Of a stretch of 47,800 nucleotides of DNA, positions 8,819-45,100 are shown piece by piece; positions within the stretch are counted from its first letter, which is position 1; each line of letters begins with the position of its first letter. The DNA comes from Jimgerdemannia flammicorona (Eukaryota). Below the pieces are notes generated by a model that made no database searches, was not told the origin of the DNA, and worked only from the letters and a program-made list of their open reading frames with translations. Location: positions 1-47,800 of the forward strand of contig RBNJ01000042.1 in NCBI GenBank assembly GCA_003990765.1, given 5' to 3'. A program made the translations under genes and the position numbers.

Positions 8819-8906
8819 GCTTCAGTAACTTCTTTTTTTTTTTTTAGTCACTTGGACTTTGCTATTTATTACCAGTCTATTAATAAGTTTACAGTATTAC
8901 CTCCCT

Positions 8907-11900
8907 CTATCTGATCTCTATAGGGGAGTCTCTTCACGAATAAAGACCACTTTCTCACTCACTACTCCAACCCTTCCCCTACTTTGCCCACAGATTTTCT
9001 CCACCAAGCAACACCTTCACCTACCCTGTAACCCCCAACCAAGCCACCAGCCTGTCAAGGTGTCTTCCATAAGTCTATGTCAATGTAATAGCTGGTCCCC
9101 TGAGCCTAGTCTCCTCCTATCCTCAAAAACAAATACCCAGTAACTGGCCAGCTCCATCCAAATTGCCAAAACCCAGCCTAAGGTAAGCCACTTCTTCCCC
9201 ACCCCCTCCACCAGTCTATCTCTCAAATCCTCCCACTGACCCCATATGCCATCTCTCCTACACACTACCCCCAAATAATTCCCAACAGCCTACCAAAAGT
9301 CACTAAGTATCTTGCACTCTCCTAGCCAATGTTCAGGCATCTATACATATCTCCCTTCCTGCCCTATATTGTAGCACTCCTTATAGTCAAAGCAACCCCA
9401 CTTGATAAGGTGACCCAAGCAGAAGTTGAGCATTACATTCCTCCTCAGCATGTGCCACCAGATCACCCAGTACTTCAGTGATATCCACCTCCTCACCTCA
9501 GCACTCTAGGCCCAAACACCATACCAGTTCCACTCTTCTCTGATATCCACTCTCTGCTATCCACTAGGCCACAGATCCTGGCCTGATCCCCTTTGGCATT
9601 CTATCTCATCACTAATATCAAACTCAATTAAGGGAATGTCTCCCAGCAACACTCAGTCTCATCTTCACATTACTGGGTCCCAAGCCACCTCTCCTTCATT
9701 TTCTTGTCAATGAATTCCAATGTGGTGCACCTCTTCCACTACCCCCCACCAGAAGTCTTTATATCACAATTGTTCAGTGTTCCAAAGCTCAACCAATAAT
9801 AGGAGATCTTCTGTTAAGCCTCTTGGTGAGGACCTCATCTCTCAGACCTTCTGCAATAGGGGGACCCAACTGCCCCCTCTCAACTCCATCACTCTCTTTA
9901 ACCACCATGATCTCAAGCAGTATAGCCTCTTCAGAAAGTCAACCAGCTCAGGTCCTCCTCTTATCACCAGTAAGGATAAGATCTCCCAACTGATCTAACT
10001 CCTTCTTCTAGCCCAGATCTACCTCTTGGCCAGCTTCATTAATCTCTTCACCACTCAGGCTGAGAAGTCTAGATGATAAGCCAGATACCACAACTTTGGC
10101 AGCCAATAGACATTCAAAATTGAGACATGCCCTGCTAGAGATAAGTGGTGACCCCCCCAACTCTGCAGAGTCCCCCCCAGATTCCAACCCTCTACTTCCA
10201 CCAAAGCCTGGATAGGACCAACCCATATACTGACAAATAAATATCCAAGTACTGCACTACCTCACCAGCAGAGATGATTGTTCCAATAATATCTCCTTCC
10301 ATTAGGCCATTGCCTAATATTATTGTTTTACACTTGTACCAATTGAGTTTAGCCCCAGAGTTCTCCTCATACCACTCTACTGTCTCCTTGAGCTCTTCAA
10401 CATCAGCAATTGATCTCAGGCTGACCACCATGTCATCTGCAAAGGCCCTAACTTTCCACCCAATTTTAAAGATAGAGAGCCCCACTATCTTCTGCCTGAT
10501 TCTGTCCATCAGGGGTTCCAGAGAAAGAGCATACAGAATGGGAGACAGTGGGTCCCCCTGGGGCACACTCCTACCCAGGGAGAATGATACCCCTCAATGT
10601 CCATTGTATATGAGTGCAGCCCTACTTCCTTCCAGTAGGCTGATCATTGCTTACTGGAACTAGTGTGGTACCCCAGTCTTATCCAATACTTTTGCCAGCC
10701 AGACTTGCTGCACCTGGTCATAAGTCTTCTCCTGGTCCAAGAAGACCAGTTGCCCATTCAGTCTACAAGCTTGTACCCCTTCAATAACTCCATGTACCCA
10801 AGCTGTACCATCTCTAATGAGCCAGCCTCCTACAAAGCCCCTCTGCTCAATACCCAAGACTTGCTGGGCCACCTTCTATAGCCTCATGACCACTACCTTG
10901 GTTACCAACTTTCTGTCTATGTCTAGTAGTATAATCAGCCACCAGTTCTTCCAGTTCTCTTGCCTTCCTTTGTTCTTATAAAGTAACATCACCAGCCCCA
11001 GATCCTGCTCCCCCACCCATCTCCCTATCTGTAGTATAAAATCACACAATGCTATTATCTCACCCAGTACTCCTAGGACTTCCACTATCTTTTTCCAGAA
11101 GTCCCAGGACAGACCATCCTCCCCAGGTGCCATACCCAGCATTGTTGCAGCAAGAACCTGGTGGATCTCTTTCTCTTGTACTGACAATACCAAGTCACTC
11201 AGCCCATCTACTTGTGAAGGGTGCCAATCCTCTAATACCCAGTTGATAGCAGCAGTATCAGCCCCACCCTCCTCCTTACTCCATAATCCACTCCATCACT
11301 CCTTTAACAATCCAAGAATGTCTTATATACTATGTACCAGTATACTATCAGAATCAAGTACCCCCTTTCACCTTTGCTGTACTCTTCTCACCTAAAGGGC
11401 TCTCATGAGATACTTTGAGGGCCTCTCCTCTTCCTCTAACTCTGCCAATGAAGCCATGCCACCAAGCTCTGCACCCTTGCCTCTTTCTCTTCCCACAACA
11501 TCTGTTGTAATTCTCTAACCTCCATTTTTGCCCTCATTAATCTCCAATCCTCTCCTCTCTCTAATATCACTAGTCCTGCCCAATCCTCCAAGAGTCTAGT
11601 CAGTCCCATCTCACCTGTCACCTCCTCTGCTTCCCAGCCTCCTTGCCAGCCTCACTCCAGTAGACTCTGGCCATCTCTTTCATTCTCATCCACCAAATAC
11701 CAACTGGGATACCTTCCTGCCTCCAGCTCTCCACCCTCAGTTGAATATCTTCAGCTCACTCATCCCATCAGATTCTATCATCTAATAAAGAGGAATTGAG
11801 GTATTAATGTCCAGGCCCATCCCCACTCCCCCCAAAATGCTCCTGTCCTAACAGCCCCTAATATTTAACCATGGACACCATTCCATCTCCAGTGACTTCC

Positions 11901-18168: not shown

Positions 18169-20329
18169 AGGTGATGCTGCTTTATACATAAGAACAAAGG
18201 AAGGCAAGAGGATTGGAAGAACTGGCGGCTGATAATGTTACTGGATATGGACAGAAAGTTGGTGACTAAGGTGGTGGTCGCAAGGCTACAGAAGGTAGCC
18301 CAGCAAATTGTAGGTGTCGAGCAGAGGGGCTTCATAGGGGGTCGGCTTATTAGAGATGGCATGGCCTGGGTATATGGAGTTATTGAAGGTGCTTGAGCCT
18401 GTAGACTGGATGGGTGTCTTGTCTTCTTGGACCAGGAGAAGACTTATGACCAGGTGTGGCGAGTCTGGCTGGTGAAAGTATTAGAAAGAATTGGGGTTCC
18501 AGTCCCATTCCGGTCGGTAATGGTCAGCCTACTGGAAAGGAGTAGGGCTGCACTAGTGTATAATGGGTATAGAGGGGTAGCATTCCCTCTAGGTAGGGGA
18601 GTGCCCCAGGGGGACCCACTGTCTCTCATTTTGTAAGCTCTTTCTTTGGAACCTCTAATGGACAGGATTCGGCAGAGGATGGTGGGGCTCTCTATCTATG
18701 GTGTTGGCTGGAAAGTTGGAGCCTTTGCAGATGATATGGTGGTTGGTTTGAGAGTGACTGCTGATGTCAAGGAGCTCAAGAAGACAGTGGAGTGGTATGA
18801 GGAGAACTCTGGGGCGAAGCTGAATTGGCACAAGTGCAAAACAATGGTGCTGGGCAATGGCCTGGTGGATGGAGAGGTTATTGGAACAATTGTCCCCACT
18901 GGAGAGGCAGTGTGGTACTTGGGCATCTATTTGTTGGTCTATGGATCTGTTCTGCCCAGACTGTGGTGGGAGCAGAGGATTGGAATTTGGGAGGAGGACC
19001 TGCAGGGTTGGGGGAAAAGACACTTCTCTCTTGCAGGAAGGATCTCGATTTTGAATGTATACTGGCTGCCGAAGCTGTGGTATTTGGCTTATCATCTGGA
19101 CTTCCAGCTTGGGTGGTGAAGAGATTAATGAAGGTGGCCAAGGGATGGATTTGGGCTGGCAGACAGAGTCAGATTGGTTGGGAGACTTTGTCCCTACCAG
19201 TGGCAAGAGGTGGCCTGGGGCTGGTGGACTTCCCCAAATGACTACACTGCTTGTGGGCATGGTGGCTTAAGAGGGCAGTGGAGTTGCATGGAGGGGGCTG
19301 GGTTCCCCTGCTGCAGAAGGTCTGGGAGAGGTGGTCATCACCAAGAGGCTCAACTGGTGATCTTCTTTCTTTAGTTGGGCTTTGGAACACTGCACAACTG
19401 CAATATAAAGGCTTTTGGTGGGGGATAGCCGAGGGGGTACACCACATTGGTATTCACTAGCAAGGGGATGAGGGGGAGAGGGCTTAGGGCCCAGTGATAT
19501 GGAGATGAGAGGGCATTCTTCTGGGAGGCATGCCTTTGCTTGAGTTCAGCATTGGTGATGGAATTGAATGCCAAAGGGGACCAGGCCAGGATCTGTGGCC
19601 TAGCGGTTGGCAGGGAGTTGGAATTGGTGAGGAGTGGGACTGGCATGGGGTTTGGACCTGGAGTGCTATGGTGAAAAATTGGATGCTGCCAAAGTACTGG
19701 GTGGTCTGGTGGCACATGCTGAGGAGGAATGTGATGCTTAACTTCTGCTCAGGACACTTTGTCATAGGGGGCTGCTTTGACTGTGAGGAGTGCCATAATG
19801 TAGGGCAGGAAGAGGGATTTGTACAGATGCCAGAACATTGGCTAGGAGAGTGTGAGGTATTGGGGAACTTTTGGCAGGCCATTGGAGACTGATTGGGGGT
19901 GAGGCGTAGGGGTGATGATGTATGGAGGAGGTGGGAGGACCTGAGGGATCGATTGGTAGGAGGGGTAGGGGAGGAGTGGATTACTTTAGGCTGGGTGTTG
20001 GCTATTTGGGTTGGGCTGGCCGGTCACTGGCTGTTTGTATTTGAGAAGAGGAGGTGACAGAGCTTAGGGAGCCAGTTATCACAGTGGCAGTGCCTTATGG
20101 AGGATACCTTGACAGGCTGGTGGCTTGGCTGGGGGCTGCAGGGGGGTCGGAGGCACCACTTAGTGGTGAAAATCTGTGGTCAGAGTGGTGGGAGAGTTGG
20201 AGTTATTGGTGAGAGGGTGGTCTTTATATGTGAAGAGGTGAAGAGGGGCCCCCCGATGGGGATTGGATAGTGGGTGGTGATATTGTATATTTATTCATAG
20301 ACTGGTAATAAAGACAGAGTCCAAGGGAC

Positions 20330-21365: not shown

Positions 21366-21698
21366 CTACCCCTCTCTTATCCTTTGAATAATTAGAAAAA
21401 CAAGAGACTTAGTATACAATGTATACCAAGAAGCCTTCAGTGTGAGAAAGTATTCACTGGAAAGTAGTTATAGTGGCAGTGCTCTTCTTATCAACCATAG
21501 TTATAAGAGACTTATTCTTTACTATGTATAAACTAAATTCATCTTAAAATTCAGGTTCAATAAGAAGTTTACTTAAGTCTTTTATATTTATATACTAGTC
21601 TCAGTTTTGGCAGAAGTTAGCTAGGCTTCTGGAGTTTAGTCAGAAATAATAGAGTCACTTAGGTGTTATTACTAAGACTCAGAGAAATATATATATAT
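21366..21698 (-). repeat. Second, partial family-A LTR, split by B1 (continues 28299-~28345)
   Basis: Direct repeat of ~20612-20970. The sequence after B1 (GTATAGAGAGAGACTTGATTCTTATATCAAGGACTGAAC) continues the match to ~20966-21010. Confidence 0.85.
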
Positions 21699-22093
21699 TG
21701 TGACAGTATAGCCAAATTAGGAAGAAGGAAATAGGGAATAGACACTTGATCGCACCCATTCCCAAAGTAGTATAGCTTTATAGTTAGCAGTCGCTGATTT
21801 TGACATTGTCTAAATTTCTAGACATTGTCTAAATAACTCATAACTTAGCCATGTAACTCAGTAGCCATCTCATAGCTAGCAAACTTGTATAAATAATCCA
21901 GTATCTTCGAGTGAATAAACCTCAGATCGAAAGTGTTAGAAAAAGAACAAGTATACTGATAAAAAGACCTCTGGGATTACCTCTTTAAATACATTTGGCC
22001 TCAAGGAACTACTGACTCTGGGAGTCAAGAAGACAAGAATTCTAGATAAAGAAATCTGATGTACTTGCACATCTTAGTGTCTACTATGTTACA
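21699..22093 (+). repeat. B1 5' LTR (395 bp)
   Basis: TGTGACAG...GTTACA. TATAAATA ~21888 and AATAAA ~21914. Direct repeat of 27843-28298 lacking 61 bp. Confidence 0.93.
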
Positions 22094-22096
22094 ACT

Positions 22097-22110
22097 TGGT
22101 GCCCATTGGC
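22097..22110 (+). promoter_or_regulatory. B1 primer-binding site
   Basis: TGGTGCCCATTGGC following LTR-ACT. B2 has TGATGCCCATTGGC. Cognate tRNA not determined. Confidence 0.7.
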
Positions 22111-22192
22111 TAGTGATTCAAGATGAATCCCTCACTTTCAAGCTGAATAATGAACAACCGCAACTAGAATGTACACAATACAATCAGACAGA

Positions 22193-25100
22193 ATGGATAT
22201 GAGACCCCCCATATTCCATGGATATATGTCCGATGAATCAATCATCACCTTCATTGATGATTTCGAGCAGTATGCTGCTGTAAGGACCTTAAGTGCAGCA
22301 CAATAAGTAGCCCTACTCTCTATAAGCCTCCGAGGCCTAGCAAGAACTGCATTTACTGCAGCCAATGTACAAGCAGCTGATGATCTAGCAAGAATCATAG
22401 CTTTCAAGACCTGGCTCCAAGCAACCTACTATACAGATGAAATCAAACAGGCACTCAAAGATCAACTGAATACTATCTGCCAAGGAATGTCTGAAGACCC
22501 AAACACATTCTATACAAGAATCCGACATCAAATAGTCCTTACTGACCACCCCAATGCAGTTCAAGACCAAGTGGCCGAGAATACCTTTATGAAAGGCATT
22601 TACCAAGAAATTACTTTAGCCATTCGATCTACCCCAACACTACTGGATGTGGGACAGAAGGATACCTACACCCAAAGATACTGAACTGCCAGATACCCTC
22701 AAGGCCATACAATGGAAAGGATAACTGGAGTAAAAATCAAACAAGCACCAAGAGTCACCAATACAATCCCGGCTACCATAGTCAACCAGAATATACAACT
22801 GCAACTACAAGACCAGAGAAGGGTTGACCCAATGGAGAAACTGGCCAAACAGTTTGCAGAAATGACTGCACACCTCAGCGATGTAGTCAAAGAGTTCAAG
22901 AAGAAGCCAGTATAGAAGTTTGCTGCTACAAATGCAAGATGATCAAAAACATGCTATAACTGTGGAGAAGAAGGCCACTATGCCTCTGAATGCATGACAG
23001 AAACCAAGCAAAAGGCCAATCCAAGCAATGCAACCAAGAACCGTGAATAAGCAAACACTATCACCTTTGAGGAGATTGGAGAATCCAAGGAAGAAAGAGA
23101 GGAATGGGAAGCTTTCCCTGCCACCTCAAGTAAGAAGGATGTCTGATCCAGTCTCTACAAAAGACCTTCAGGCAGACCTCCTAAGAAGGCCCAGACACAG
23201 ACAAAATAACCAGAAACAGTCATCGAAGAAAGAATTCAGCAGAGCAAAGCTGACCAAGATATGGAGCTAGAACAAGATACTGAGCTGGAGCGAGCAGTAG
23301 AAGATATTATTCGAAATACTACCCCATCAAGTGAAGGGAAGAAGGAGCAGAAACTACACAAGAGCAAGACCTTCAAGTATGACATCTTCAAGGACCTCAA
23401 GGACCAAAAGGTCAATACAACCTTTAGCCAGCTGGCTGAAATCCCAATATTTAGACAACAAATGAGGACAGAAATCTTAGACATCAGCAAAGACCAAGGT
23501 TACAGAATAATCGAAGCCAACAATGCACAAGAAGATTCAGATGAAGAAAGTGAAGATAACTGGAAAACATCAGCCTATGCTACCTGCCAGATTGAGGACC
23601 AGGTCTTTGAAGCCATCATTGATATAGGAGTAGGAGGTTGTCTCATCACTAAGAAAGCAGTAGACCACCTAGGCTGGAAGATAGAAGAAGCCATTAAACT
23701 GATATTCATCACAGCTGATGAAATATGAGCAACACCCTTGGGAAAGATCCGAGATGTACTAATCAAGTTCAGAGAGGCCACTATCCCTGTGAATGTTATC
23801 ATCACCAATGCAACCAACTATGATATCCTCATCAGCAATCAATAGCTTCATAAAGCCAAGGCAATGATTGACCTCAGTGCACAGAAGATGCAGATCATCT
23901 ACCAGGGAAAGAAGATCAGAATTCCCATCAATGTCCACAAAGGAGTCTACCCCGAGATGGAGAAAGACCAAAAAGAAGAAGTCTACATAGTTACTACAAA
24001 GAAAGGAAAAGACAAGCAATTGATAGAGGAAGAATGGTATACAAGAATCGCAGATAAATACACCCCACTAAGAAGGTGTCCCCATGATAAAAGAATGTAC
24101 TGTGCCCAGCACTTGGATCACTGCTACTCTTGTATCATTGAGGTGAAGAAGATCACCAACAAGCTAAAGAAGAACCAGGAGGAACTAGAAGATGGACCAC
24201 CAGAGTTATTGGATGACAGTGATAATGAGGATGAAGATATCACAGTCAAGATACGAAGGATTCACCCTGATGCAGTCATACCACAGTATAAGTTGGAGAA
24301 TACAGCTGGAATGGACCTATCTACTATTACACACACAATACTTGAACCACAGACCATTACCATTCTAGAAACAGGAATTGAAGTAACCATCCCACCAAAC
24401 CATGTCAGAATCCTCAAGACAAGGAGTAGCCTGATGAAAAGTGAAATATCTATAGAGTCATCGATTTGGATTATACTGAAGAAATCCTTCTCCTTGCCAG
24501 GAACTACAACCCAACAATCCCATTTGAAGTAAGGAAGAAGGATTGGCTGGCACAAATGCTCATCCTACCTATCCTTAATCCAAGAATCAAGGAGGTTGCA
24601 AACATCAGACAAACTCAGTGAGGGAGAGCTGGATTCAGCTCTACAGGAAGAGGAGTCCTCACAGCAACTAAGATCACCGAATTGGAGCACAAGAAGGAGG
24701 AAAGCCAAGACAAACACATCTATACAATCAGAAGAAACTTCCCCCTCAGGGAAGAATTGCAGAGCCTCTTGCATATATTCGAGAATGTACTGGCCATGGA
24801 TTTCAAGGACATCAATACCAAGAAACCCTTGTATTATCATGATGTCAATACTGGAGATGCAAAGCCAATCTATCAGAAGGCCTGCCCCATTCCACCAGCA
24901 TACAGAGAATGGCTCAAGACAGAGATCAAGGAAATGGAGGAATCTGGTATCATTGAAGAAGCCAGCAGCCCTTGGTCCTCTCCCATCATCCTTGTACTAA
25001 AGAAAGGAAGCCAACTAGGAGAATTTATACCAAGACTCTGCACAAACTATAGAAGACTCAATGAGGTCACAGAGAAGGACAGACAACCATTGCCAAACAT

Positions 25101-26169
25101 TGGCGATATTCTTATCATGCTGGAGAATGAATCACAATTCTACACCACTCTGGATCTGTTCTCAGGATTCTACCAAATCAGCCTTACACCTGAAGCCAGC
25201 AAAAGATCAGCCTTCATCACTCCCGATGAAACCTATGTCTATCTTCGCATGCCCTTTGGAATGTGCAATGCACCAGCAAGCTTCCAGTGAATGATGAATA
25301 GCATCTTCAGGGATGTTATGGAAAAATGGATGATGGTATATGTAGATGATGTAATCATCTTCAGCCGAACAGTCAAGGAGTACTTGGAACATGTTGAGGA
25401 AATCCTCAGAAGGCTTCCCAAATATGGCCTCTACATCAAGCCCAAGAAATGCAAGTTCAGAGAAAAAGAGATTGCATGCCTTGGACACATTATTAACTGT
25501 AAAGGAATACACACAGATCCCACAAAGATCAAAGCAGTAGCAGCATACCCAGTACCTATCAGCATCATAGAAGCCTGAGCCTTCATGGGACTTGTATCCT
25601 ACTACAGAAGATTTATTAGAAGATTCTCCCACATTGCCAGCCCTATCTATGATCTATTCAGAAAAGAGGTTAAGTTCCAGTGGACTCAGCAGCAGCAACT
25701 AGTCTTTGATGAGCTCAAGACCAGATTGACCCAGGCCCCAATCTTGAGAAGACCTGACTGAACTCAGGAGTTTATTCTGCAAACAGATGCCAGTGCAATG
25801 GGACTTGGAGCTGTCCTTGCACAAAAGAAAAATGGTGCCGAATATGTGGTAGCCTATCTCAGCTGAGGTACTCGTGGGGCAGAGCAGTCCTATGAATCTT
25901 ATAAGCTGGAATGCCTTGCAGTCATCTGGGCTATAGGGAAGTTCCACTACTATCTGGCTGGCAGACACTTCACTATTCAGACAGATTATTTGGCACTCAC
26001 CTAGTTGCTCACTACCAGTGAGCCCAAAGGAATCTATACCTGATGGCTCATGAAGCTGCAAGCATATGATGCCATGATCACCCACTGCCCTGGAAGAACC
26101 AATGCCAATGCTAATGCCCTCTCATGGACACTCCAAAGGACCCCACCCCCACAAAATCACCATGAATAA
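22193..26169 (+). pseudogene. gag-pol: B1 ORF1: gag-PR-Cys/His linker-dUTPase-RT-RNase H (single ancestral frame)
   Basis: PPIFHG..FIDDFE, CYNCGEEGHYASEC, IIDIG (IIDTGA in B2), LDLFSGFYQI, MPFG, YVDD, TDAS, ANALS. Fragments at 22487, 22712, 23261 and 23864 share one frame. The frameshift in the dUTPase is absent from B2. Confidence 0.9.
24239..24648 (+). pseudogene. dut: B1 dUTPase domain between PR and RT (small frameshifting deletion)
   Basis: AGMDL, TGIEV, RSSL, VIDLDYT, LAQML, GFSSTG. Confidence 0.9.
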
Positions 26170-27354
26170 GGAGCTGTACTATGGAATCATCAGCTATCTG
26201 AGGCAGCGAAAGATGCCCCCACATCTGGAAGAATGGACAAAAACAATTATTAATTGGACATGGAAACAATTCGAAACTGATGGAGAAACACTCAAGAAAG
26301 GACAACAATTAGTCATCCCCGAGCACCGGAAGAATTAAGTGATGAAAGAAGTATATGAACAGGGTCATGTAGAAGGAACAAATATGTATGATAAAGCAAG
26401 AAGAACCATGTGGTGGTCTGGAATGGAAGAAGATATCAGACAATTTGTTAGAACCTGTGACAAATGTCAGAAACAGAAACAAGACTGATGGGATCAAGCC
26501 CCTGGATCAGTAGACATCGAACCAATACTATTTGCCCACATTGCAATAGATGTAATTGGCCCTCTACCCCTAACATTGACTGGCAACTGATATGTCATTG
26601 TAATAGTAGACCTGTTTACAAAATAGGTAGAGGCTGGGCTGCTCAAGGAAGCCAATGCATAGTTAATTGCCGATTTCTTGCACAGAGAAATCATCTGCCA
26701 ATTCAAGACCCCAAAGCAAGTTACCACAGACAGAGGAACAGAATTTATCAACCAGTTTTATGAGATTCTTTACAAGAAGTACAAGATCCAATACTCAAGA
26801 CCACTGTATATCACCTATAAGGAAATGGACAAGCAGAGAGAACTAACAAGACCCTCAAGAACATCATCGCCAAGATCTGTGATGAATATGGAAACTGGGA
26901 CCACTATCTTCCAATAGCATTATCCACTCTGTGGGACATACAATCACAAAGTACCCATTTTATACCATGAGAAATGCTATTCAGCGAAGAAAGTTCTGGT
27001 GGAAGTTTGTTAGCAAGTAATAATGTAATTTGGAAGCATGTGGACACGGAGATATGGAGATTGCACCAGATCAGAAAAAAGGCAGAGGATTACATAATCA
27101 AGGCGCAGGCACTACAATGGAACAATGCAGAAAAAACCCACAAGCCCCTGGAGATTATCAAGATAGGAGATGAAGTCCTAGTATATCAGAACATGGTAGA
27201 AGCTTCTTGGTCATGAAAATTGGAGCCTAAGTGGGAGGGACCTTATCTGGTACAAGATATAAAAGGGACTACTTTCTGGCTATGAAAGCCCTCAGGTACA
27301 ATAATCCCCCCCACCATTCATCGAAACCAACTCAAGAAGTACCATGGCCAATAA
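26162..27354 (+). pseudogene. B1 integrase, in a frame separate from RT-RH
   Basis: MNKELYYGIISYL..., H..WWSGM..CDKCQ, IDVIGP, TDRGTEF, GQAER, WEGPY, LKKYHGQ*. A few stops and a 1-nt deletion relative to B2. Confidence 0.88.
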
Positions 27355-27805
27355 CCGAAGCACCGCAATGGCACTCAAGATCATTAGTGCTGCCCAAAGA
27401 GCCATTAAAAGACAATGGCACACCACCAAGCCTCTGACCATAGAGGCATACTATGAGGATATTCAGAGCATTGTGCAGACTCATCTCTCTCAGATCTCAC
27501 ACTTTAGAGCCTATCAGTATCGGGCAGAATTCCAAGAGTACTTCAAGCTTGGGCAGGTGCTCAATCAGGATCCAGCAAAGACCAAAGAGGACTGGATTGC
27601 TGAGTGTCAACTCTCCCACTCACAGATCACTATTGCCAAAAGGATCTACAAGTTATTCCAAGAAGATGAATCAGCAATAGATCACCTGAGAGGAGTAACC
27701 CCCATCAACTTCGAGAAAGTAAGAAAACATTATTGGGAAACAGTCATGCAGCAAATTGCACAGTATAAGACCATACAGACAGTTGAAACCTGGGAGTTTG
27801 AATAG
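27344..27805 (+). CDS. Extra 153-aa ORF of unknown function between integrase and PPT
   Basis: Uninterrupted ATG-TAG ORF with ACCATGG context. Equal-length (462 nt) homolog in B2. Confidence 0.8.
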   Translation: MANNRSTAMALKIISAAQRAIKRQWHTTKPLTIEAYYEDIQSIVQTHLSQISHFRAYQYRAEFQEYFKLGQVLNQDPAKTKEDWIAECQLSHSQITIAKRIYKLFQEDESAIDHLRGVTPINFEKVRKHYWETVMQQIAQYKTIQTVETWEFE

Positions 27806-27832
27806 ATGTCTCAGGGATGAGACCATCTATTC

Positions 27833-27841
27833 AGGAGGAAG
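27833..27841 (+). promoter_or_regulatory. B1 polypurine tract
   Basis: AGGAGGAAG immediately before the 3' LTR. AGAAGAAAG in B2. Confidence 0.75.
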
Positions 27842-27842
27842 T

Positions 27843-28298
27843 TGTGATGGTATAGCCGAATTAGGAAGAAGAAAATAAGGAATAGACACTTGATCACACC
27901 CATTCCCAAAGTAGTATAGCTTTATAGTTAGCAGTCGCCAATTTCGACATTGTCTAAATTTCTAGACATTGTCCAAATTGAACACCCTGATTTAGTATAG
28001 TATTTTGACATTGTCTAAATTTCTAGACATTGTCTAAATGACTCATAACTTAGCCGCATAACTCAGTAGCCATCTCATAGCTAGCAAACTTGTATAAATA
28101 ACCCAGTATCTTCAAGTGAATAAACCTCAGATCGAAAGTATTAGAAAAAGAACAAGTATACCGATAAAAGGACCTTCAGGATTACCTCTTTAAACACATT
28201 TGGCCTCAAGGAACTACTGATTCTGGGAGTCAAGAAGACAAGAATTCAAAATAAAGAAATCTGATATACTTGCACATCTTAGTATCCACTATATTACA
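27843..28298 (+). repeat. B1 3' LTR (456 bp)
   Basis: TGTGATGG...ATTACA, direct repeat of the 5' LTR. Confidence 0.93.
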
Positions 28299-31103: not shown

Positions 31104-31578
31104 TGTAACGTAGCAGACACTAAGATGGACAAGTATGTCGGATTTCTTTATCTTGAATTCTTGTCTTCTTGACTCCCAGAGTCAGTAGTTTCTTGAGGCT
31201 AAATGTGTTTAAAGAGATAATCCCGAAGGTCCTTTTATTGGTATACTTGTTCTTTTTCTAACACTTTTGATCTGAGGTTTATTCACTCGAAGATACTGGG
31301 TTATTTATACAAGTTTGCTAGCTATGAGATGGCTACTGAGTTATGTGGCTAAGTTGTGAGTCATTTAGACAATGTCTAGAAATTTAGACAATGTTGAAAT
31401 GCTATACTAAATTGGGATGTTCGATTTGGATAATGTCTAAGAATTTAGACAATGTCTAAGAATTTAGACAATGTCGAAATTCAGGACTGCTAACTATAAG
31501 ACTATACTACTTTGGGACTGGGTGCAATCAAGTGTCTATTCCCTATTTCCTTCTTCCAAATTTGGCTGTACTGTCACA
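31104..31578 (-). repeat. B2 3' LTR (475 bp)
   Basis: TG...CA termini; repeat of 37330-37823. Confidence 0.93.
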
Positions 31579-31615
31579 ACTTTCTTCTAAATAGATGGTC
31601 TCATCTCTGAGGCAT

Positions 31616-32077
31616 CTATTTAAACTCCCAGGCTTCAACTATCTGTATGGTCTTGTACTGTGCAATTTGCTGCATGACTGTTTCCCAATGATGTCTTCTC
31701 ACTTTCTTGAAGTTGGTGGGGGTTACTCCTCTCAGGTGGTCTATTGCTGGTTCATCTTCTCAGAATAACTTGTAGATCCTTTTGGCAATAGTGATCTGTG
31801 AGTGGAAGAGTTGATACTCAGCAATCCAGTCCTCTTTGGTCTTTGCTGGATCCTGATTGAGCATCTGTCCAAGCTTGAAGTACTCTTGGAATTCTGCCTG
31901 ATATTGATAGGCTCTAAAGTGTGAGATCTGAGAGAGATGAGTCTGCACAATACTCTGAATATCCTCATAGTATGCCTCTATGGTCGGAGGCTCGGTGGTA
32001 TGCCATTGTCTTTTGATGGCTCTTTGGGCAGCACTAGTGATCTTGAGTGCTATCACAGTGCTTCAGTTATTAGCCAT
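31616..32077 (-). pseudogene. B2 copy of the extra 153-codon ORF (premature stops)
   Basis: Near-identical peptide ALKITSAAQRAIKRQWHTT...IAKRIYKLF. Stops are TGA from CGA-type codons. Confidence 0.82.
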
Positions 32078-33260
32078 GGTACTTCTTGAGTCGGTTTCGA
32101 TGAATGGTGGTAGGGATTATTGTGCCTGAGGGCTTTCGTAGCCGGAAAGTAGTCCCTTTTATATCTTGTACCAGATAAGATTCTTCCCACTTGGGCTCTA
32201 GTTTTCGTGACCAAGAAGCTTCTACCATGTTCCGATAAACTAGGACTTCATCTCCTATCTTGATAATCTCCAGGGGCTTGTGGGTCTTTTCCACATTGTT
32301 TCATTGCAGTGCCTGCACCTTAATTATATAATCCTCTGCCTTTTTCCTGATCTGGTGCAATCTCCATATCTCCATGTCCACATGCTTCCAAATTGCATCA
32401 TTACTTACTGACAAACTTCCACCAGAACTTTCTTCACCGAATAGCATTTCTCATGGTGTAAAATGGGTACTTTGTGATCATATGTCCTGCAGAGTGGATA
32501 ATGCTATTGGAAGATAGTGGTCCCAGTTTCCGTATTCATCACAGATCTTAGCGATGATGTTCTTGAGGGTCTTGTTGGTTCTCTCTGCTTATCCGTTCCC
32601 TTGTGGGTGATATGCAGTAGTCTTGATGTATTGGATCTTGTACTTCTTGTAAAGAATCTCATGAAACTGGTTGATAAATTCTGTTCCTCTGTCCATGGTA
32701 ACTTGCTTTGGGGTCTTGAATCGGCAGATGATTTCTCTGTGCAAGAAATCGGCAATTGACTGTGCATTGGCTTCCTTGAGTGGCCCAGCCTCTACCCATT
32801 TTGTAAACAGGTCTACTATTACAATGATATATCAGTTGCCAGTCAATGTTAGGGGTAGGGGGCCAATTACATCCATTGCAATGTAGGCAAATGGTATCGG
32901 TTCAATGTCTGCTAATCCAGGGGCTTGATCTTATCAGTCTTGTTTCTGTTTCTGGCATTTGTCATAGGTCCTGACAAATTGTCTGATATCTTCTTCCATT
33001 CCAGGCCACCACAAGGTTCTTCTCACTTTTTCAAATGTGTTTGTTCCTCCTATGTGACCTTGTTTGTGTATTTCTTTCATCACTTGATTCTTCCAGTGCT
33101 CGGGGATGACTAATTGTTGTCCTTTCTTAAGTATTTCTCTATCAGTTTCGAATTGTTTCCATGTTTGATTAATAATTATTTTTGTCCATTCTTCCAGATG
33201 CGGGGGCATCTTTTGCTGCCCCAGGTAGCTGATGATTCCATAGTACAGCTCCTTATTAAT
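32067..33260 (-). pseudogene. B2 integrase, in a frame separate from RT-RH
   Basis: HKQGHIGG..WWPGM..DKCQ (HHCC), MDVIGP, DRGTEF, WEESY, RNRLKKYHG. Confidence 0.88.
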
Positions 33261-36200
33261 GGTGATTTTGTGGGGGTGGGGTCCTTCGGGGTGTCCATGA
33301 GAGGGCATCAGTATTGACGTTGGTTCTTCCAGGGCAGTGAGTGATCATAGCATCATATGCTTGCAGCTTCATGATCCATCAGGCATAGATTCCTTTGGGC
33401 TCACTGGTAGTGAGCAACCAGATGAGTGCCGAATGATCTGTCTGGATGGTGAAGTGTCTGTCAGCCAGATAGTAGTGGAACTTCTCTACAGCCCAGATGA
33501 CTGTAAGACATTCCAACTTGTATGATTCATAGGACTGCTTGGCTCCTCGAGTACCTCAGCTGAGATAAGCTACCATGTATTCAGTACCATTCTTCTTTTG
33601 TGTGAGAACAGCTCCAAGTCCCATTGTACTGGCATCTGTCTGCAGAATAAACTCTTGAGTCTAGTCGGGTCTTCTCAGGATTGGGGCCTGGGTCAATTGG
33701 GTCTTGAGCTTGTCAAAGACTAGTTGCTGCTGCTGAGTCCACTGGAACTTGACCTCTTTTCTGAACAGATTATAGATAGGACTGGCGATGTGGGAGAACC
33801 TTCTGATAAATCTTCTATAGTAGAATGCAAGTCCCATAAAGGCTTGGGCTTCAGTGATACTGGTAGGTACTGGGTATACTGCTACTGCTTTGATCTTTGT
33901 AGGGTCTGTATGTATTCCTTCACAGTTGATGATGTGTCCAAGGTATGCAATTTCTTCTTCTCCAAACTTGCATTTCTTGGGCTTGATGTAGAGGCCATGT
34001 TTACGAAGCCTTCTGAGAATTTTCTCGATGTGTTCCAAGTGCTCCTTGGCAGTTTGACTGAAGATGATCATATCATCTACATATACCATCATCCATTTTT
34101 CCATAACATCCCTGAAGATGCTGTTCATCATTTGCTAGAAGCTTGCTGGTACATTGCACATTCCAAAGGGCATGCAAAGATAGACATAGGTTCCATCAGG
34201 AGTGATGAAGGCTGATCTTTTGCTGGCTTTAGATGTAAGACCAATTTGGTAGAATCCTGAGAACAGATCCAGGGTGGTGTAGAATCATGATTTATTCCCC
34301 AGCATGATAATATCACCAATGTTGGACAACGGTTGTCTGTCCTTCTCTGTGACCTCATTGAGTCTTCTATAATCTGTGCAGAGTCTTGGTGCAAACCCTC
34401 CTGGTCAGCTTTCTTTCTTTGGTACAAGGACAATGGGAGAGGACCAAGGGCTGCTAGCTTCTTCAATGATACTAGATTCCTCCATTTCCTTGATCTCTGT
34501 CTTGAGCCATTTCCTGTATGCTGGTGGAATGGGGCAGGCCTTCTGATAGATTGGCTTTGCATCTCCAGTATTGATATCATGATAATATAAGGGTTTCTTG
34601 GTCTTGATGTCCTTGAAATTTGTGGCCAGTACATCCTCGAATATATGCAAGAGGCTCTGCAATTCTTTTCTGAGGGGGAAGTTTCTTCTGATTGTGTAGG
34701 TGTATTTGTCTTGGCTTTCCTCCTTCTTGTGCTCCAATTTGGTGATCTTAGTTGCTGCAAGGACTCTTCTTCCTATAGAGCTGAATCTAGCTCTCTCTCG
34801 CTGAGTTTGTCTGATATTTGTAACCTCCTTGATTCTTGGATTAAGGACAGGTAGGATGAGCATTTGTGCCAGCCGATCCTTCTTCCTTACTTCAAATGGG
34901 ATTGTTGGGTTGTGGTTTCTGGCGAGGAGAAGGATTTCTCCAGTATAATCTGAATCAATGACTCCTCCTTCTATAGATATTTTGCTTTTCGCCAGGCTAC
35001 TCCTTGTCTTGAGGATTCCGACATGGTTTGGTGGGATGGTTACTTCAATTCCTGTTCCTAGAATGGTAGTGGTCTGTGGTTCGAGTATTGTGCATGTAGT
35101 AGTAGATAGGTCCATTCCAGCTGCATTCTCTGACTTGTACTGTGGTATGACTACATTAGGGTGAATTCTTCGTATCTTGACTGTGATGTCTTCTTCATCA
35201 TCGCTGTCATCCAATAGTTCTGGTGGTCCATCTTCTAGTTCCTCCTGGTTCTTCTTTAGCTTGTTGGTGATCTTCTTCACCTCAATGATACAAGAGTAGC
35301 AGCAATCCAAGTGCTGAGCACAGTACATTCTTTCACCATGGAGGCACCTTCCTAGTGGGGCATATCCATCTGCGATTCTTGTATAATATTCTTCCTCTGT
35401 CAATTGCTTGCCTTTTCCTTTCTTTGTAGTAACCATGTAGACTTCTTCTTCTTGGTCTTCCTCCATCTCGGGGCAGACTCCTTTGTAGACATTGATGGGA
35501 ATTCTGATCTTCTTTCCCTGATAGATGATCTGCATCTTCTGTGTACTGAGGTCAATTATTGCCTTGGCTTTATGAAGCCATTGATTGCTGATGAGGATAT
35601 CATAGTTGGTTGCATTGGTGATGATGACATCTACAGAGATAGTGGCCTCTCCAAACTTGATTGGTACATCTCGGATTTTTCCCAAGGGTGTTGCTCATGT
35701 CCCATCAGCTGTGACAAATAACAATTTGGTGGCTTCTTCTATCTCTCAACCTAGGCAGTCTACTGCTTTCTTAGTGATGAGACATCCTCCTGCTCCTGTA
35801 TCAATGATGGCTTCAAAGACCCGGTCCTCGATCTGGTAGGTAGCATAGGCTGATGTTTTCCAGTTATCTTTACTCTCTTCATCTGAATCTTCTTGTGCAT
35901 TGTTGGCTTTGATTATTCTGTAACCTTGATCTTTGCTGATGTCTGAGATTTCCATCCTCATTTGTTGTCTGAATATTGGGATTTCAGCCAGCTGGCCAAA
36001 GGTTGCATTGACCTTTTGGTCCTTGAGGTCCTTGAAGATATCATACTTGAAGGTCTTGCTCTTGTGCAATTTCTGCTCCTTCTTCCCTTCACTTGATGGG
36101 GTAGTATTTCGAATAATATCTTCTACTGCTTGCTTCAGTTCAGCATCTTGTTCTAGCTCTATATCTTGATCAGCTTTGCTCTGCTGGTTCTCTTTTTCGA

Positions 36201-37230
36201 TGACTGTTTCTGGTTGTCTTGTTTGTGTCTGGGCCTTCTTAGGAGGTCTGCCTGGAGATCTTTTGTAGGGACTGGATCAGATATCCTTCTTGCTTAAGGT
36301 GGCAGGATAAGCTTCCCATTCCTCCCTCTCTTCCTCAGATTCTCCAATCTCCTCAAAGGTGATAGTGTTTGCTTGTTCGCGGTTCCTGGTTGCATTGCTT
36401 GGATTGACCTTTCACTTGGTTTCTGTCATGCATTCAGAGGCATAGTGGCCTTCTTCTCCACAGTTATAGCATGTTATTGATTATCTTGCATTTGTAGCAG
36501 CAAACTTCTGTACTGGCTTCTTCTTGAACTCTTTGACTACATTGCTGAGGTATGCAGTCATTTCTGCAAACTGTTTGGCCAGTTCCTCCATTGGGTCGAC
36601 CCTTCTCTGGTCTTGTGGTTGCAGTTGTGTATTTTGGTTGACTATGGTAGCCAGGATTGTATTGGTGACTCTTGGTGCTTGTTTGATTTTTACTCCAGTT
36701 ATCCTTTCCATTGTATGGCCTTGAGGGTGTCTGGCAGTCCAGTATCTTTGGGCATAGGTAACCTTCTGTCCCAGGTTCAGTATTGTTGGGGTAGATCGAA
36801 TAGCTAAAGTGATTTCTTGGTGAATGTCTTTCATAAAGGTATTCTTGGCTACTTGGTCTTGAACTGCATCGGGGTAGTCAGCAAGGACTATTTGATGTCA
36901 GATTCTTGTATAAAATGTGTTTGGGTCTTCAGACATTCCTTGGCAGATAGTATTCAGTTGATCTTTAAGTGCCTGTTTGATTTTGTCCATATAGTAGGTT
37001 GCTCGGAGCCAGGTCTTAAAGGCCAGGATTCTTGCTGGATCATCAGCTCCTTGTACATTAGCTGCAGTAAACGTGGTTCTTGCTGGGCCTCAGAGGCTCA
37101 CAGGGAGTAGGGCTACTTGTTGTGCTGCCGATAAGGTTCTTACAGCAGCATACTGCTCGAAATCATCAATGAAGATAATGATTGATTCATCAGAGGTATA
37201 TCTATGGAATACAGGTGGTCTCATAACCAT
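33253..37230 (-). pseudogene. gag-pol: B2 ORF1: gag-PR-linker-dUTPase-RT-RNase H
   Basis: A 426-aa open stretch (34405-35685) joins the PR C-terminus, dUTPase and RT start in one frame. IIDTGAGG, YVDD, TDAS. Confidence 0.92.
34773..35187 (-). pseudogene. dut: B2 dUTPase domain, open frame within the decayed polyprotein
   Basis: AAGMDL, GTGI, RSSLA, GGVIDSDYTGEI, DRLAQ, RERARFSSIG. Confidence 0.93.
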
Positions 37231-37329
37231 TCTGTCTGATTGTGTTGTGTGGGTTCTGGTTGAGGTTGTTTATTGTTCAGCTTGAAAGTGAGGAATTCAT
37301 CTTGAATTACCAGCCAATGGGCATCAAGT

Positions 37330-37823
37330 TGTAATGTAGTGGATGCTAAGATGAGCAAGTACATCAGATTTCTTTATCTTGAATTCTTGTCTTCTTGACT
37401 CCCAGAGTCAGTAGTTTCTTGAGGCCAAATGTGTTTAAAGAGATAATCCCGAAGGTCCTTTTATCGGTATACTTGTTCTTTTTCTAACACTTTTGATCTG
37501 AGGTTTATTTACTCAAAGATACTGGGTTATTTATACAAGTTTGCTAGCTATGAGATGGCTACTGAGTTACGTAGCTAAGTTATAAGTCATTTAGACAATA
37601 TCTAGAAATTTAGATAATGTTGAAATGCTATACTAAATCAGGACATTCGATTTAGATAATGTCTAAGAATTTAGACAATGTCTAAGAATTTAGACAATGT
37701 CTAAGAATTTAGACAATGTCGAAATTCAGGACTGCTAACTATAAGGCTATACTACATTGGGACTGGGTGCGATCAAGTGTCTATTCCCTATTTTCTTCTT
37801 CCAAATTTGGCTGTACCATTACA
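37330..37823 (-). repeat. B2 5' LTR (494 bp)
   Basis: TG...CA termini; PBS adjacent at 37313-37326. Confidence 0.93.
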
Positions 37824-38149
37824 ATAGCAAGAAAGAGTTTGGAATAACCAACAAACCCCTCAGTCAAAAGTTTACCACTATGAAGGAAGATAATAAAAAC
37901 TAGTACAAGAGAATTGCAGATAGTTATACACTATGTGAATGATGCCCTTATTCTATTTGAATGTACTGCATAGAATATATTAGTAAATGCCATGCATGCC
38001 TCTCTAAAGTTTTCAAAATCCAACCTGAGAAATACCAAGCCCAACAGACTGAGGAATCCAAACAAGACCACTCCTCTTATAAAGAATGGAAAGAGACTGA
38101 CTTTGAGGAGACTGACAGCAATTGGAACAATGAGAATGAAGAGCTCAAT

Positions 38150-42183: not shown

Positions 42184-45100
42184 GAGGATTTATTGGAAGT
42201 ACTGGAAGAGCTGAAGCAGTGGACAAAGGCTTAGAAGGCTTTTGTGGAGTCGACACACTTGGAGGTGATAGATGGGAAGCAGATTCAAGTGGACAAGGGG
42301 CAGTAGGAAAGAGCTCAGAGATATAAGAGATAAAAGGAGCTGCTGGCTAAGCTGGAGGATAGACCACAGAAGGATGTGAGTGGAATGGTGGAAGCAGGGG
42401 GTGCCAAAGCAAGTGTCTGGACCAGTGAGAGTGGCGGGAGTATAGAGAAGGGGATGGGAGAGGACAGAGAGGTAACTGGCAATAACCCATATACAGATGG
42501 TATGTTTGAGGTCTGGGAGGAGGCTGGAGAGGACTTGCCTATCCCTACTTCTCTTATTAGGTGAGGTCCAGCTCCCTGAAGTAGAGTGGTAGAGGATATA
42601 CCTATACAGGGGGCCCAGTGAGTACAATTTGGAGTTCCAGAGGTGGCAAATGGGGAACAAGTGGTGGCAGTTGGGGAGAAGGAACTGGTGGATGTCCCAG
42701 AGGTATGGGATGAGTCTGCAAGTGTTGGGGCTGACACCATAATGCTGGATGGAGAGAGGCCAGTGATTTCTGGAGAGAAGGAGGTGGGGAATCTACTTTG
42801 GATATATAGAATGATGAATAACCTGGTGGCTGAAGAGTTGGGAGAGGTGGACCTGAGAGTAATAAGTGATGAGCATTGGGTGCGGATCCTGCAGAGGGAT
42901 AGCATAGTGATAGTATTGAAGGTGGAAATCCTTGTAATATATCTGGAGGAGGAAGGATATGAGATGGATAAGGAGCAGAAGGTGGAGCTGGTAGATGTCA
43001 CTGGTGAGAGGGCTGAATACTGCTGGACCAAGCATCATGGATTGTAGCTCTGGCAGGAGGCCTGCCTGGAGTATAGAGAGGAGTTTGAGGAGAATGTGGA
43101 TGGGGAGATGAATGAGCTGTTGGCTGGATTGGAGGCTCAGAGGGCTGAAGAGGAAGAGGTAATTGTGGAATATAATCTAGACATGGTACAGGAAGAGATG
43201 AATATAGAGCAGTAGGAATGGACTTGATAACATAAAGTATTTCATTATAAATAGTATAACCAATATTTTTTCTTTGAATATGAATGGGTTGTGGGGTACT
43301 TCTCAACATAGGAATATTTTTACTTAGCTGAAGAGATTGGAGGCCAATCTCTTCCTCTTGCAGGATGTCAGGTGTGAGGATAATTTGGATAGACTAGAAT
43401 AGATGAAGGAATGGAGAGATGAGGCAGTTTGGAAGGGCAAGGTTGGGATTCTGGTCTGAAAAGACAAAGGAGAGATATGGGATATGAGGAGCTGGGGGGA
43501 TAGATTGGTCTGGGGAGAGTAAATATGTAGGTTGGGAGCTGGTCACAGTGGGCTCCTGTTACTGCCCTACTGTATGGGGTGAGCATGTGGATTGGGTGAA
43601 GGATCTTCAGAAGAGTGGGGTCCTTGCAGAGGCTGGGGTAGATATGCTTGGTGGAGACTTCAATATGGTCTAGGATGTACTGATGGATAGAACAGATGGT
43701 GGACAGAGAGCCAAGAGTAAGTGTGGAGGGCTGGTGGTATGAGAGAAAGTGGAAAGGCTAAGTGCTCTGGTAGATGCTAGTAGGGAGTATTGGGGGGACA
43801 GGAGGGTATACATATATTGGGCAGAGGGCCTGGGGTTGAGGATTGATTGAATTTTGATGACTAGCTACTGGGGCTTGGATGTTTGGAAGTCACTGGAGGT
43901 GGAATGGTGTCTATGGTCAGACTGTTAGGATAGGGGCATTTTGGGGGGAGTGGGAATGAGTCTGGACATTGGTACCTCAATTCCTCTTTATTAGATGATA
44001 GAATCCAGTAAGATGGATAGGCTAAAGATATTTAACTGAGGGTGGAGAGCTGGAGGCAGAAAGGTGCCCTGGTTGGTATTTAGTGGATGAGGATAAAAGA
44101 GATGGCCAGGGTCTACTGGAGTGAGACTGGCAAAGAGGCTGGGAAGCAGAGGAGGCAACAGATGCAATGGGCTTCTGTTAGACTGACTAGACTCTTAGAG
44201 GATTGGGCAGGGCTAGTGATATTGAAGGGGGGAGAGGATGGGAGATTAATAAGGGCAAAAATAGAGGTTGGAGAATTATAACAGGTGTTGTGAGAAGAGG
44301 AAGAGGCAAGGGTACAGAGCTTGGTAGCACAGCTTCATTGGCAGGGTTTGGAGAAATGGAAGAGACCCTCAAAGTATCTCATGAGGGCCCTTCAGGTGAG
44401 AAGGGTATAGCAAAGGTGGGAGGGGATACTTGACTCTGATAGTATAATAGTGTATAGTATACAAGACATTCTTAGATTATTAAAGGAGCAATGAAGTGGA
44501 TTATGGAGTAAAGAGAAGGGTGGGGCTAACACTGCTGCTATTGACCAGATATTGGAGGATTGGTACCCACTACAAGTAGATAGGCTGGGTGACTTGGTGT
44601 TGCCAGTACAAGAGGAGGAGATCCACCAGGTTCTTGCTGCAACAATATCAGGTACAGTATCTGAGGAGGATGGTCTGCCCTAGGACTTTTGGCAAAAGAT
44701 AGTGAGAGTCCCAGAAGTACTGAGTGAGATGATAGCATTGTGTGATTTTATACTACAGACAGGGAGATGAGTGGGGGAGCAAGATCTGGGGCTGGTGATA
44801 TTGCTTTATAAGAACAAAGGAAGGCAAGAGGACTGGAAGAACTAATGGCCAATTATGCTGCTAGATATGGACAGAAAGTTGGTGACTAAGGTGGTAGTTG
44901 TGAGGCTATATAAGGTGGCCCAACAAGTCTTGGGTGTTGAGCAGAGGGGCTTTGTAGGAGACTGGCTCATTTGAGATGGTATAGCCTGAGTACATAGAGT
45001 TATTGAAGGGGTGAGAGCTTGTAAACTAGATGGGTGACCAGTCTTCTTGGACCAGGAGAAGGCTTATGACTGAGTATAGTGGGTCTGGCTGGCAAAAGTA

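Follow-up and report, generated by a model that had tools for sequence, protein, structure and literature searches.

As a textbook rule for retroviruses and long terminal repeat (LTR) retrotransposons, integrase (IN) enters the particle within Gag-Pol, and it is at the gag/pol boundary that the ratio of Gag to Pol is determined. Two copies of a Ty3/gypsy family, here called B1 and B2, lie in a stretch of 47,800 nucleotides (nt) of Jimgerdemannia flammicorona DNA (contig RBNJ01000042.1 of assembly GCA_003990765.1, positions 1 to 47,800 of the forward strand; hereafter the window), and in both of them IN is read in another frame than reverse transcriptase (RT) and RNase H (RH), from a codon that lies at the RH stop. 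These copies raise the question of whether this layout reflects the decay of one element or the organization of a whole lineage and, in the latter case, how IN might be produced. A first-pass annotation of the window had proposed a three-cistron element chained by overlapping stop and start signals. The comparison of B1 and B2 with relatives from protein and metagenome collections indicates that the separation of IN from RT-RH, in three cistrons, is very probably the normal layout of this Ty3/gypsy lineage. Its IN is probably not made within the usual single polyprotein and, judging from the sequences of the junctions, we are inclined to think that it is made by termination-reinitiation between the stop of the first open reading frame (ORF1) and the IN ATG.

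Organization and State of B1 and B2

B1 and B2 were found by self-comparison of the window, and their domains were identified by Pfam on three-frame read-through translations (Table 1). The Pfam order in B1 is zf-CCHC, Asp_protease_2 (weak, below the cut-off), dUTPase, RVT_1, and RT_RNaseH / RT_RNaseH_2, followed in the next frame by Integrase_H2C2 and rve. Both copies have a pair of LTRs around the internal region and a domain order with IN after RT-RH, and in both of them IN lies outside the Pol or Gag-Pol polyprotein. The lineage is Ty3/gypsy by every domain criterion, and it departs from that group only in this last respect.

Table 1. Features of the Ty3/gypsy copies B1 and B2 in the window.
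Feature	Position	Strand	Description
B1	21698-28298	+	Ty3/gypsy copy; LTR direct repeats
B1 5' LTR	21698..22093 (inner end approximate)	+	Direct repeat with 27842-28298, ~93% identity; begins TTGTGAC
B1 ORF1	22193..26169	+	gag (zf-CCHC), protease, dUTPase, RT, RNase H; stop codon TAA, 26167-26169
Junction 1 (RH/IN)	26162..26169	+	ATGAATAA; IN ATG, read in the +1 frame, 5 nt upstream of the ORF1 stop
B1 IN cistron	26162..27354	+	N-terminal extension, HHCC zinc finger, DDE core, C-terminal WEGPY region; Pfam Integrase_H2C2, rve; TAA 27352-27354
Junction 2 (IN/ORF3)	27344..27354	+	ACC ATG GCC AAT AA; ORF3 ATG within IN codons Y-H-G, 8 nt before the IN stop
B1 ORF3	27344..27805	+	153 amino acids, 0 internal stops; TAG 27803-27805
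B1 3' LTR	27842..28298	+	Direct repeat; terminates in TTACA
B2	31104-37824	-	Second copy of the B1 family; same three-frame layout
B2 ORF1	37230-33256	-	
B2 IN	33260-32070	-	ATT instead of ATG
B2 ORF3	32077-31616	-	

At the RH/IN junction of B1, ORF1 ends with CAC CAT GAA TAA (..QNHHE*) in the RH frame, and IN starts with ATG AAT AAG GAG in the +1 frame relative to RH, at exactly the coordinates given by the first-pass annotation. The same offset, also described there for B2, was recovered: no indel separates the two copies at the junction, and IN is +1 to ORF1. The ATT that B2 was said to carry at the start codon is indeed present, and one G>T change accounts both for this ATG->ATT replacement and for a GAA->TAA replacement in the ORF1 frame, which adds a stop. 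A second +1 overlap, likewise correctly noted, lies at the end of IN, where CAT GGC CAA TAA is overlapped by the ORF3 start ACC ATG G.

B1 and B2 are old, dead copies of one family. B1 contains approximately 18 stops in ORF1, nine in IN, and none in ORF3, and the respective numbers in B2 are 13, seven, and two. The copies are 91.2% identical (583 mismatches over 6595 aligned columns, 536 of them transitions), and only two frame-changing indels distinguish them, neither at the RH/IN junction: a deletion of 7 nt at 24454, within the dUTPase domain, and a deletion of 1 nt near 26794, within the IN core, both private to B1. ORF1 is whole in one frame in B2 and in L018, a relative described below, and the ancestral state is one frame; the B2 frames of ORF1, IN, and ORF3 are three successive +1 frames. 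The LTR pair of B2 is also ~93% alike. The LTR divergence within a copy (~7%) is thus nearly that between B1 and B2 (~9%), suggesting that both copies came from almost the same burst and from close masters. For this reason, B1 and B2 alone cannot exclude a single defective parent, and the argument that the offset is not private decay, which had been built on these two copies, needed relatives from elsewhere. No clear target-site duplication of B1 or B2 was found in the flanking sequence.

A Separate Integrase Cistron in Relatives

Relatives of ORF1 were searched with B2 ORF1 as the query, using words from its RT-RH part and candidates of 728-2317 residues. We took 13 of the best 15 ORF1-type matches, leaving out two plant-labelled proteins (P0007 and P0014). 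Twelve of the 13 carry a dUTPase (42-48% identity) and one a Nudix domain. Neither rve nor Integrase_H2C2 is listed in any of them, and most of the weaker matches (~40% identity) do list both. Twelve of these proteins stop 13-31 residues past the D-A-L-S-R motif that closes RNase H, and the thirteenth loses its frame earlier. The C-terminus of P0001 (..KYNHE*) resembles that of B1 ORF1. The protein with the Nudix domain, P0015, has NUDIX (PF00293) in place of dUTPase and also stops right after the RNase H motif; it could be a case of a swap between two nucleotide-sanitising enzymes.

A search with B2 IN among proteins of 226-721 residues gave 116 matches, of which about 100 are stand-alone metagenomic IN proteins of roughly 400-435 residues (40-46% identity). 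P0122 and P0121 are 88% and 73% identical to B2 IN, respectively. When 30 IN proteins were examined, 27 were found to begin exactly at M-[ND]-x-[ED]-L-Y-Y, which corresponds to position 26162 of B1; the other three have an N-terminal extension and retain the same Met internally. This first Met is invariant in the alignment of the 27 sequences. A collection of viral contigs yielded only eight distant IN-like matches, none of which belongs to the split-IN clade. The metagenome pipeline labels the stand-alone IN proteins 'transposase InsO family protein' or 'IS30 family transposase', likely a systematic misannotation of eukaryotic retrotransposon genes as bacterial insertion sequence genes.

The alignment of 27 sequences was then used to scan metagenome contigs, giving 80 loci. 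Twelve loci, from the core clade and the neighbouring one, include the DNA of the RH/IN junction (L001, L003, L004, L005, L006, L008, L009, L010, L012, L013, L018, and L031); L002 has no RH/IN junction on its contig. In 12 of 12, the first nt of the ORF1 stop lies within -5 to +7 nt of the A that opens the IN ATG, and an IN ATG is present at the homologous position in 13 of the 14 junctions when B1 and B2 are included. The stop and the start are combined as ATGA in L001, L003, L004 (which does not differ from L003 in its junction and ORFs), L013 (with only 42 nt upstream of the ATG), and L031, as TAATG in L008 and L012, as TGATG in L009, as TGAtcATG in L010, as ATGGATCTAG in L006, and as ATGAATAG / ATGAATAA in L005 and L018, which have the same 8-mer type as B1. 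Ten of these loci have IN in the -1 frame relative to ORF1, and L005 and L018, like B1 and B2, have it in the +1 frame. The proximity of stop and start is kept among the relatives, and the frame relation is not.

L018 is a near-intact close relative, with 83% nucleotide identity to B1 and B2, one stop in gag, and one stop in IN; its junction is intact and reads ..NADALSRMPRRTQPPYNHHE* followed by MNKELYYGIISYL in the +1 frame. L003, more distant (~45-50% protein identity), has three uninterrupted ORFs of 1577, 429, and 233 codons from stop to stop. The end of ORF3 recurs at positions 1-40 of L018, and the start of gag is found again at 7378-8115 of L003. The ends of these contigs thus overlap within the element, indicating that they were assembled through the LTR as a circle or a tandem and that the elements are complete. 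Relatives or younger copies with RH and IN in one continuous frame, which the first-pass annotation had named as the sign of a single defective parent, were not found; L018, which is close to B1, shares with it both the ORF1 stop and the ATG in the +1 frame.

Fused outgroups, at ~24-33% IN identity (L029, L032, L033, L035, L040, L048, L071, and L078), have RH and IN in one open frame, and a Met at the homologous position is present in none of the eight. A quick maximum-likelihood tree of IN placed the 11 core-clade members with a known junction, all of the overlap type (11/11), on a branch with a Shimodaira-Hasegawa-like approximate likelihood ratio test (SH-aLRT) value of 97.

In parallel, Logan contigs from four sequencing runs, of which one was a soil metagenome and three came from one organism, were aligned to B1 at >=80% likeness, and ~1000-1500 contig pieces per run aligned. 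None of the 12 indel rows listed, out of 60, falls at 26100-26170, a weak but consistent sign, and the gap of 7 nt at 24454 that is private to B1 shows as an insertion in the other genomic copies. Skips in these contig alignments were considered as introns and were not so read, being carried by single low-depth contigs.

A whole abundant lineage, represented by hundreds of metagenome contigs, with many intact members in soil metagenomes, and by about a thousand contig pieces in single runs, thus departs from the rule that IN is part of the polyprotein. Such split-IN elements will be labelled 'non-autonomous' or 'frameshifted' by annotation pipelines, with 'transposase InsO/IS30' as the name given to their IN genes.

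Selection on the Cistrons and Conservation of ORF3

Selection ratios were computed with L018 as the partner of the window copies. The NG86 ratio of nonsynonymous to synonymous substitution rates (dN/dS) was 0.12-0.14 for the gag-protease part and 0.09 for the dUTPase-RT-RH part. For IN, the uncorrected ratio of the corresponding proportions of differences (pN/pS) was 0.14-0.15; the IN cistron was therefore kept functional while split. ORF3 gave an uncorrected pN/pS of 0.24-0.26 in its own frame and of 0.95-1.66 in the other two frames, with synonymous sites that are saturated (pS ~0.8). This constraint is specific to one frame, indicating that ORF3 is a real gene. Both IN and ORF3 are under purifying selection.

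A homologous ORF follows IN in L018 (66% identity), L006, L002, L008, L003, L009, L010, and L012, and these ORFs share a central motif of the type IA.RIY.LF.d...AI..L.GVt. Seven loci (L018, L003, L006, L008, L009, L010, and L012) have its ATG within the IN codons K-K-Y-H (CAT G), and there, as in B1 and B2, ORF3 is +1 to IN. The ATG of L002 is at the IN stop, in the -1 frame, and in L005 an ORF follows IN in the same frame after a gap. The overlap between IN and ORF3 is 8 nt in B1 and B2 and ranges from 26 to ~400 nt in relatives.

In a profile search, the ORF3 family reached at least 150 cluster representatives with a cut-off of E<=1e-3, and 73 with one of E<=1e-10. A word-indexed search returned 54 proteins, all of them metagenomic, none of them named, and none with Pfam domains. 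Nine ORF3 sequences matched no Pfam family at E<=0.01, so that no homologue of the TAV/P6 transactivator was detected by Pfam; a non-homologous analogue may exist. The AlphaFold model of ORF3 is all-helical, with a predicted local distance difference test (pLDDT) score of 88 and a predicted template modelling (pTM) score of 0.80. Fold searches gave no convincing match (Foldseek against the PDB, best E 0.6; VIA-align wide, best Z 4.6), and only unnamed clusters and scattered low-value rows were obtained from the ESM Atlas.

Possible Mechanisms of Integrase Synthesis

In the layout that is very probably normal for the lineage, ORF1, comprising gag, protease, dUTPase, RT, and RH, is one frame with no frameshift between gag and pol, IN has an AUG of its own at the site of the would-be RH-IN linker, and ORF3, the last cistron, encodes a small helical accessory protein. 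Under termination-reinitiation, ribosomes on the full-length RNA would finish ORF1 and stop a few nt from the IN AUG, and a fraction of them would reinitiate there. IN would then be a free protein, made in a lower amount than Gag-RT, and the stoichiometric valve would be placed at RH/IN, instead of at gag/pol as in other retroelements. Such an IN would enter the particle, or meet the cDNA, without a Gag tether.

Viral reinitiation after long ORFs is described, in a passage of PMC10275272, as occurring with stop and start within 20 nt of each other, often as UAAUG or AUGA, and with an efficiency of 3-20%. A distance within ~20 nt was observed in all 12 junction loci, and it is +5 in B1. The frame of IN relative to ORF1 differs among relatives (-1 or +1), which argues against programmed frameshifting and for a coupling between stop and start. 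The first-pass annotation had offered three routes for IN and ORF3, namely termination-reinitiation, a +1 frameshift, and subgenomic or spliced RNAs. Our data favour the first for IN and speak against the second, with ten relatives in the -1 frame and the ATG kept; the third stays plausible, chiefly for ORF3.

Several observations weigh against termination-reinitiation. The calicivirus-type TGGGA motif was absent from the 110 nt upstream of all the junctions (0/12), where other tethering sequences are possible. Local folding at 10 junctions was no stabler than that of shuffled sequences (z from +1.24 to -1.82; 0/10 below -2), and RNAalifold found no consensus structure in four junctions of the TAATG/TGATG type. 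A slippery heptamer is in frame in two of the nine -1-type overlaps (C CCA AAC in L006 and C CCT TTC in L012). The closeness of stop and start could in part be inherited from a short ancestral linker, and all the relatives are metagenome contigs.

Two further objections come from the spacing of the cistrons. A distant, AT-rich clade (L021-L026; ~34-37% IN identity) has its IN, which begins with MN[IVD]EEY.., at the homologous Met 200-450 nt downstream of the ORF1 stop, with a spacer that is closed in both frames read. IN of this clade is therefore not made by stop-start coupling, which points to another route. In most relatives, for its part, the ORF3 ATG precedes the IN stop by 26 to ~400 nt, outside the ~20 nt expected for coupling, and at least one cistron therefore probably needs another mechanism, as several relatives have an ORF3 start too far from the IN stop for reinitiation.

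The spacer of the distant clade (e.g., L022:3753-4230 and L026:2567-3002) contains an internal repeat that translates as ..YPRP*VA*LMSI... This repeat looked tRNA-like, and no tRNA was found in the spacer by a tRNA scan of nine loci, nor any Rfam family.

IN and ORF3 could alternatively be made from one or more subgenomic RNAs, produced by leader splicing or from an internal promoter, or from an internal ribosome entry site, the nearness of stop and ATG being a leftover of the ancestral RH-IN linker. We regard this as a real but less probable possibility for IN and ORF3 together. Retroviral env and foamy-virus pol do come from spliced RNAs, and the initiator Met kept by L021-L026 at 200-450 nt from the ORF1 stop, the large distance, in most relatives, from the ORF3 start to the IN stop downstream of it, the ACCATGG context of the B1 ORF3 ATG, and the lack of both a TURBS motif (termination upstream ribosome-binding site) and a stable local structure at the junctions all agree with it. 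This model does not, however, demand what is seen at the junctions: ORF1 tails are anywhere between 13 and 31 residues long and also differ in sequence, but the stop remains within -5 to +7 nt of the ATG in 12 of 12 loci and in both frames. Moreover, no AG directly precedes the ATG in B1 or L008, a search of nine loci against Rfam at E<=0.1 detected no element, e.g., no ribozyme, and the clade with the spacer stands apart from the overlap clade in the quick IN tree and may have arrived at its solution independently. For at least part of the system, an RNA that is subgenomic, spliced, or initiated internally is nevertheless plausible.

A hairpin of 12-14 bp ends a few nt before TAATG in L008 (1795-1835) and L012 (415-455). 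Five of its pairs are changed on both sides between these loci, and one of the double changes consists of a synonymous ACG>ACC opposite CCC>GGA. When this hairpin was tested on four sequences, 71% of the cells were paired (slid controls, 38-46%), a result that 15 of 500 shuffles equalled; these are too few sequences to claim a conserved structure.

Programmed frameshifting, giving an ORF1-IN fusion by a +1 shift at the stop in B1, L018, and L005 and by a -1 shift elsewhere, would make the ATG incidental, and we consider it unlikely. A +1 shift at GAA-TAA-G would yield an in-frame ..HHE-KELYY, XXXYYYZ heptamers are in frame in L006 and L012, and in L008 and L012 the stop is closely preceded by the hairpin with five pairs changed on both sides. 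Against this, the required direction of the shift differs between close relatives, seven of the nine -1-type overlaps have no XXXYYYZ heptamer, the usable shift window is only 16-34 nt in five of these nine, and the hairpin lies upstream, not downstream, of the shift site. The ATG is also kept in 30 of 30 IN proteins and in 13 of 14 junctions, as compared to 0 of 8 fused outgroups. The CCC-CGA-AGG / CCA-CCC-CCA motifs, put forward by the first-pass annotation as a frameshift signal in B1, are not conserved in L005 or L018, the other relatives of the +1 type.

Finally, B1 and B2 could be offspring, mobilised in trans, of a single defective parent that had a 1-nt indel in the C-rich tract, the layout being without function. 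This descent would accord with their 91% likeness, their LTR pairs at ~93% and nearly same burst, the many stops in both copies, and the CCCC/CCCCC runs adjoining the junction, but it is highly improbable in view of the same layout in L018, in L003 with its three open ORFs, and in further loci of no more than 42-61% IN identity, of the split found also in 13 ORF1 proteins and ~100 stand-alone IN proteins, and of the strong purifying selection on IN.

Comparison with Known Systems

The split-IN lineage resembles canonical Ty3/gypsy elements (Metaviridae) in its LTRs, its CCHC gag, the order PR-RT-RH-IN (PR, protease), and an IN with HHCC and DDE motifs and no chromodomain. A dUTPase between PR and RT is also described, in the sections of PMC5408684 and PMC2864245 that deal with them, for the bdelloid rotifer elements Juno, Vesta, and TelKA and for the basidiomycete PosPlaTy3-5, the pol of which includes IN. 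The lineage shares this position of dUTPase with them, as far as their described layout goes. Unlike all these Ty3/gypsy elements, it has IN as a cistron of its own with an ATG, gag and pol in one frame, and, after IN, a conserved ORF3 with no fold match.

Termination-reinitiation is reported, in parts of PMC10275272 and PMC2699510, for caliciviruses, segment 7 of influenza B virus, victoriviruses, and the hypovirus CHV1, with less of the downstream product being made. The junctions studied here share with these viral sites a long upstream ORF and a shared or nearly shared stop and start (ATGA, TAATG, TGATG, and ATGAATAA). They differ from viral TURBS sites in having no TGGGA-type motif complementary to 18S rRNA (0/12) and no conserved stable structure, and coupling is here a prediction drawn from the sequence.

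Among retrotransposons, a UAAUG couples ORF1 and ORF2 of SART1, a non-LTR element of Bombyx, as cited in a passage of PMC10275272. SART1 is thus another retrotransposon with an overlapping stop and start between two cistrons. It is, however, a long interspersed nuclear element (LINE) in which a gag-like ORF1 is coupled to the whole of pol, whereas the break in the present LTR element lies within pol, at RH/IN.

The pregenomic RNA of Caulimoviridae has ORFs chained by ATGA-type junctions. These related reverse-transcribing elements, like the split-IN lineage, have consecutive ORFs with short overlaps, and caulimovirids translate one long RNA. Their reinitiation is helped by a virus-encoded transactivator. 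They have no integrase and no LTR-type integration, whereas the split-IN lineage has IN and LTRs. Foamy viruses make the whole of Pol apart from Gag, from its own spliced RNA. In foamy viruses, as would hold for the split-IN lineage, a pol product is untethered from Gag and needs another packaging route, but in the split-IN lineage only IN is separate, and its junction resembles translational coupling rather than splicing. Reinitiation after long ORFs is described for cauliflower mosaic virus in a passage of PMC10275272.

Taking these likenesses further, one may speculate that the lineage moved its translational valve from gag/pol to RH/IN and adopted a caulimovirus-like polycistronic programme on its genomic RNA, in which free IN made by reinitiation would be recruited to the particle or the cDNA without a Gag tether, ORF3 would serve as a helper (a reinitiation or RNA-export factor, or an IN adaptor), and the clade with the spacer would represent a second, independent uncoupling. 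We consider this scenario as a whole rather doubtful.

Split gag/pol arrangements, and a non-LTR element with separate ORFs for apurinic endonuclease (APE), RT, and RH, are known from a full-text search that included sections of PMC5911963 and PMC2582038. No description of an LTR element with IN as a separate cistron was found in the full-text literature, subscription journals, Repbase, and supplements being outside the scope of the search, and an earlier description is possible. Should the coupling prove real, this lineage would offer the first example, in the literature searched, of termination-reinitiation inside the pol of an LTR element. It would also provide a natural system for asking how an untethered IN finds the reverse-transcription complex, and would add new eukaryotic reinitiation sites that lack the known TURBS motif.

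Other Features of the Window

Beyond B1 and B2, nothing more than a further RT fragment, and no gene of the host, came from a motif scan and Pfam on 14 open ORFs; all that the window contains is remains of transposons. A decayed, different Ty3/gypsy element lies on the minus strand at ~6000-9000, with RNase H and IN in one continuous frame and the RNase H end motif at 7476. The normal RH-IN fusion that had been ascribed to another gypsy family of the window is therefore true of this element. A repeat occurs in three copies that are 74-86% alike (3945-5432, 18188-19674, and 44808-46284). The RT fragment (RVT_1) is the ORF at 4220-4720 in the first of these copies, and its translation looked LINE-like.

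The window (1-47800) is extremely poor in CpG, with an observed/expected ratio of 0.10, as compared to 0.44 in the intact relative L018. C>T and G>A predominate among the changes found in only one of the copies B1 and B2 (207 of ~285 in B1); they fall at CpA, CpG, and CpC, and TpA, at 0.86, shows no excess. This pattern of deamination without an excess of TpA therefore looks methylation-driven rather than due to classical repeat-induced point mutation. Lastly, positions 300-1265 of the window contain arrays of a 9-bp tandem repeat in which several frames are open, with translations rich in Leu, Pro, Ala, and Cys.

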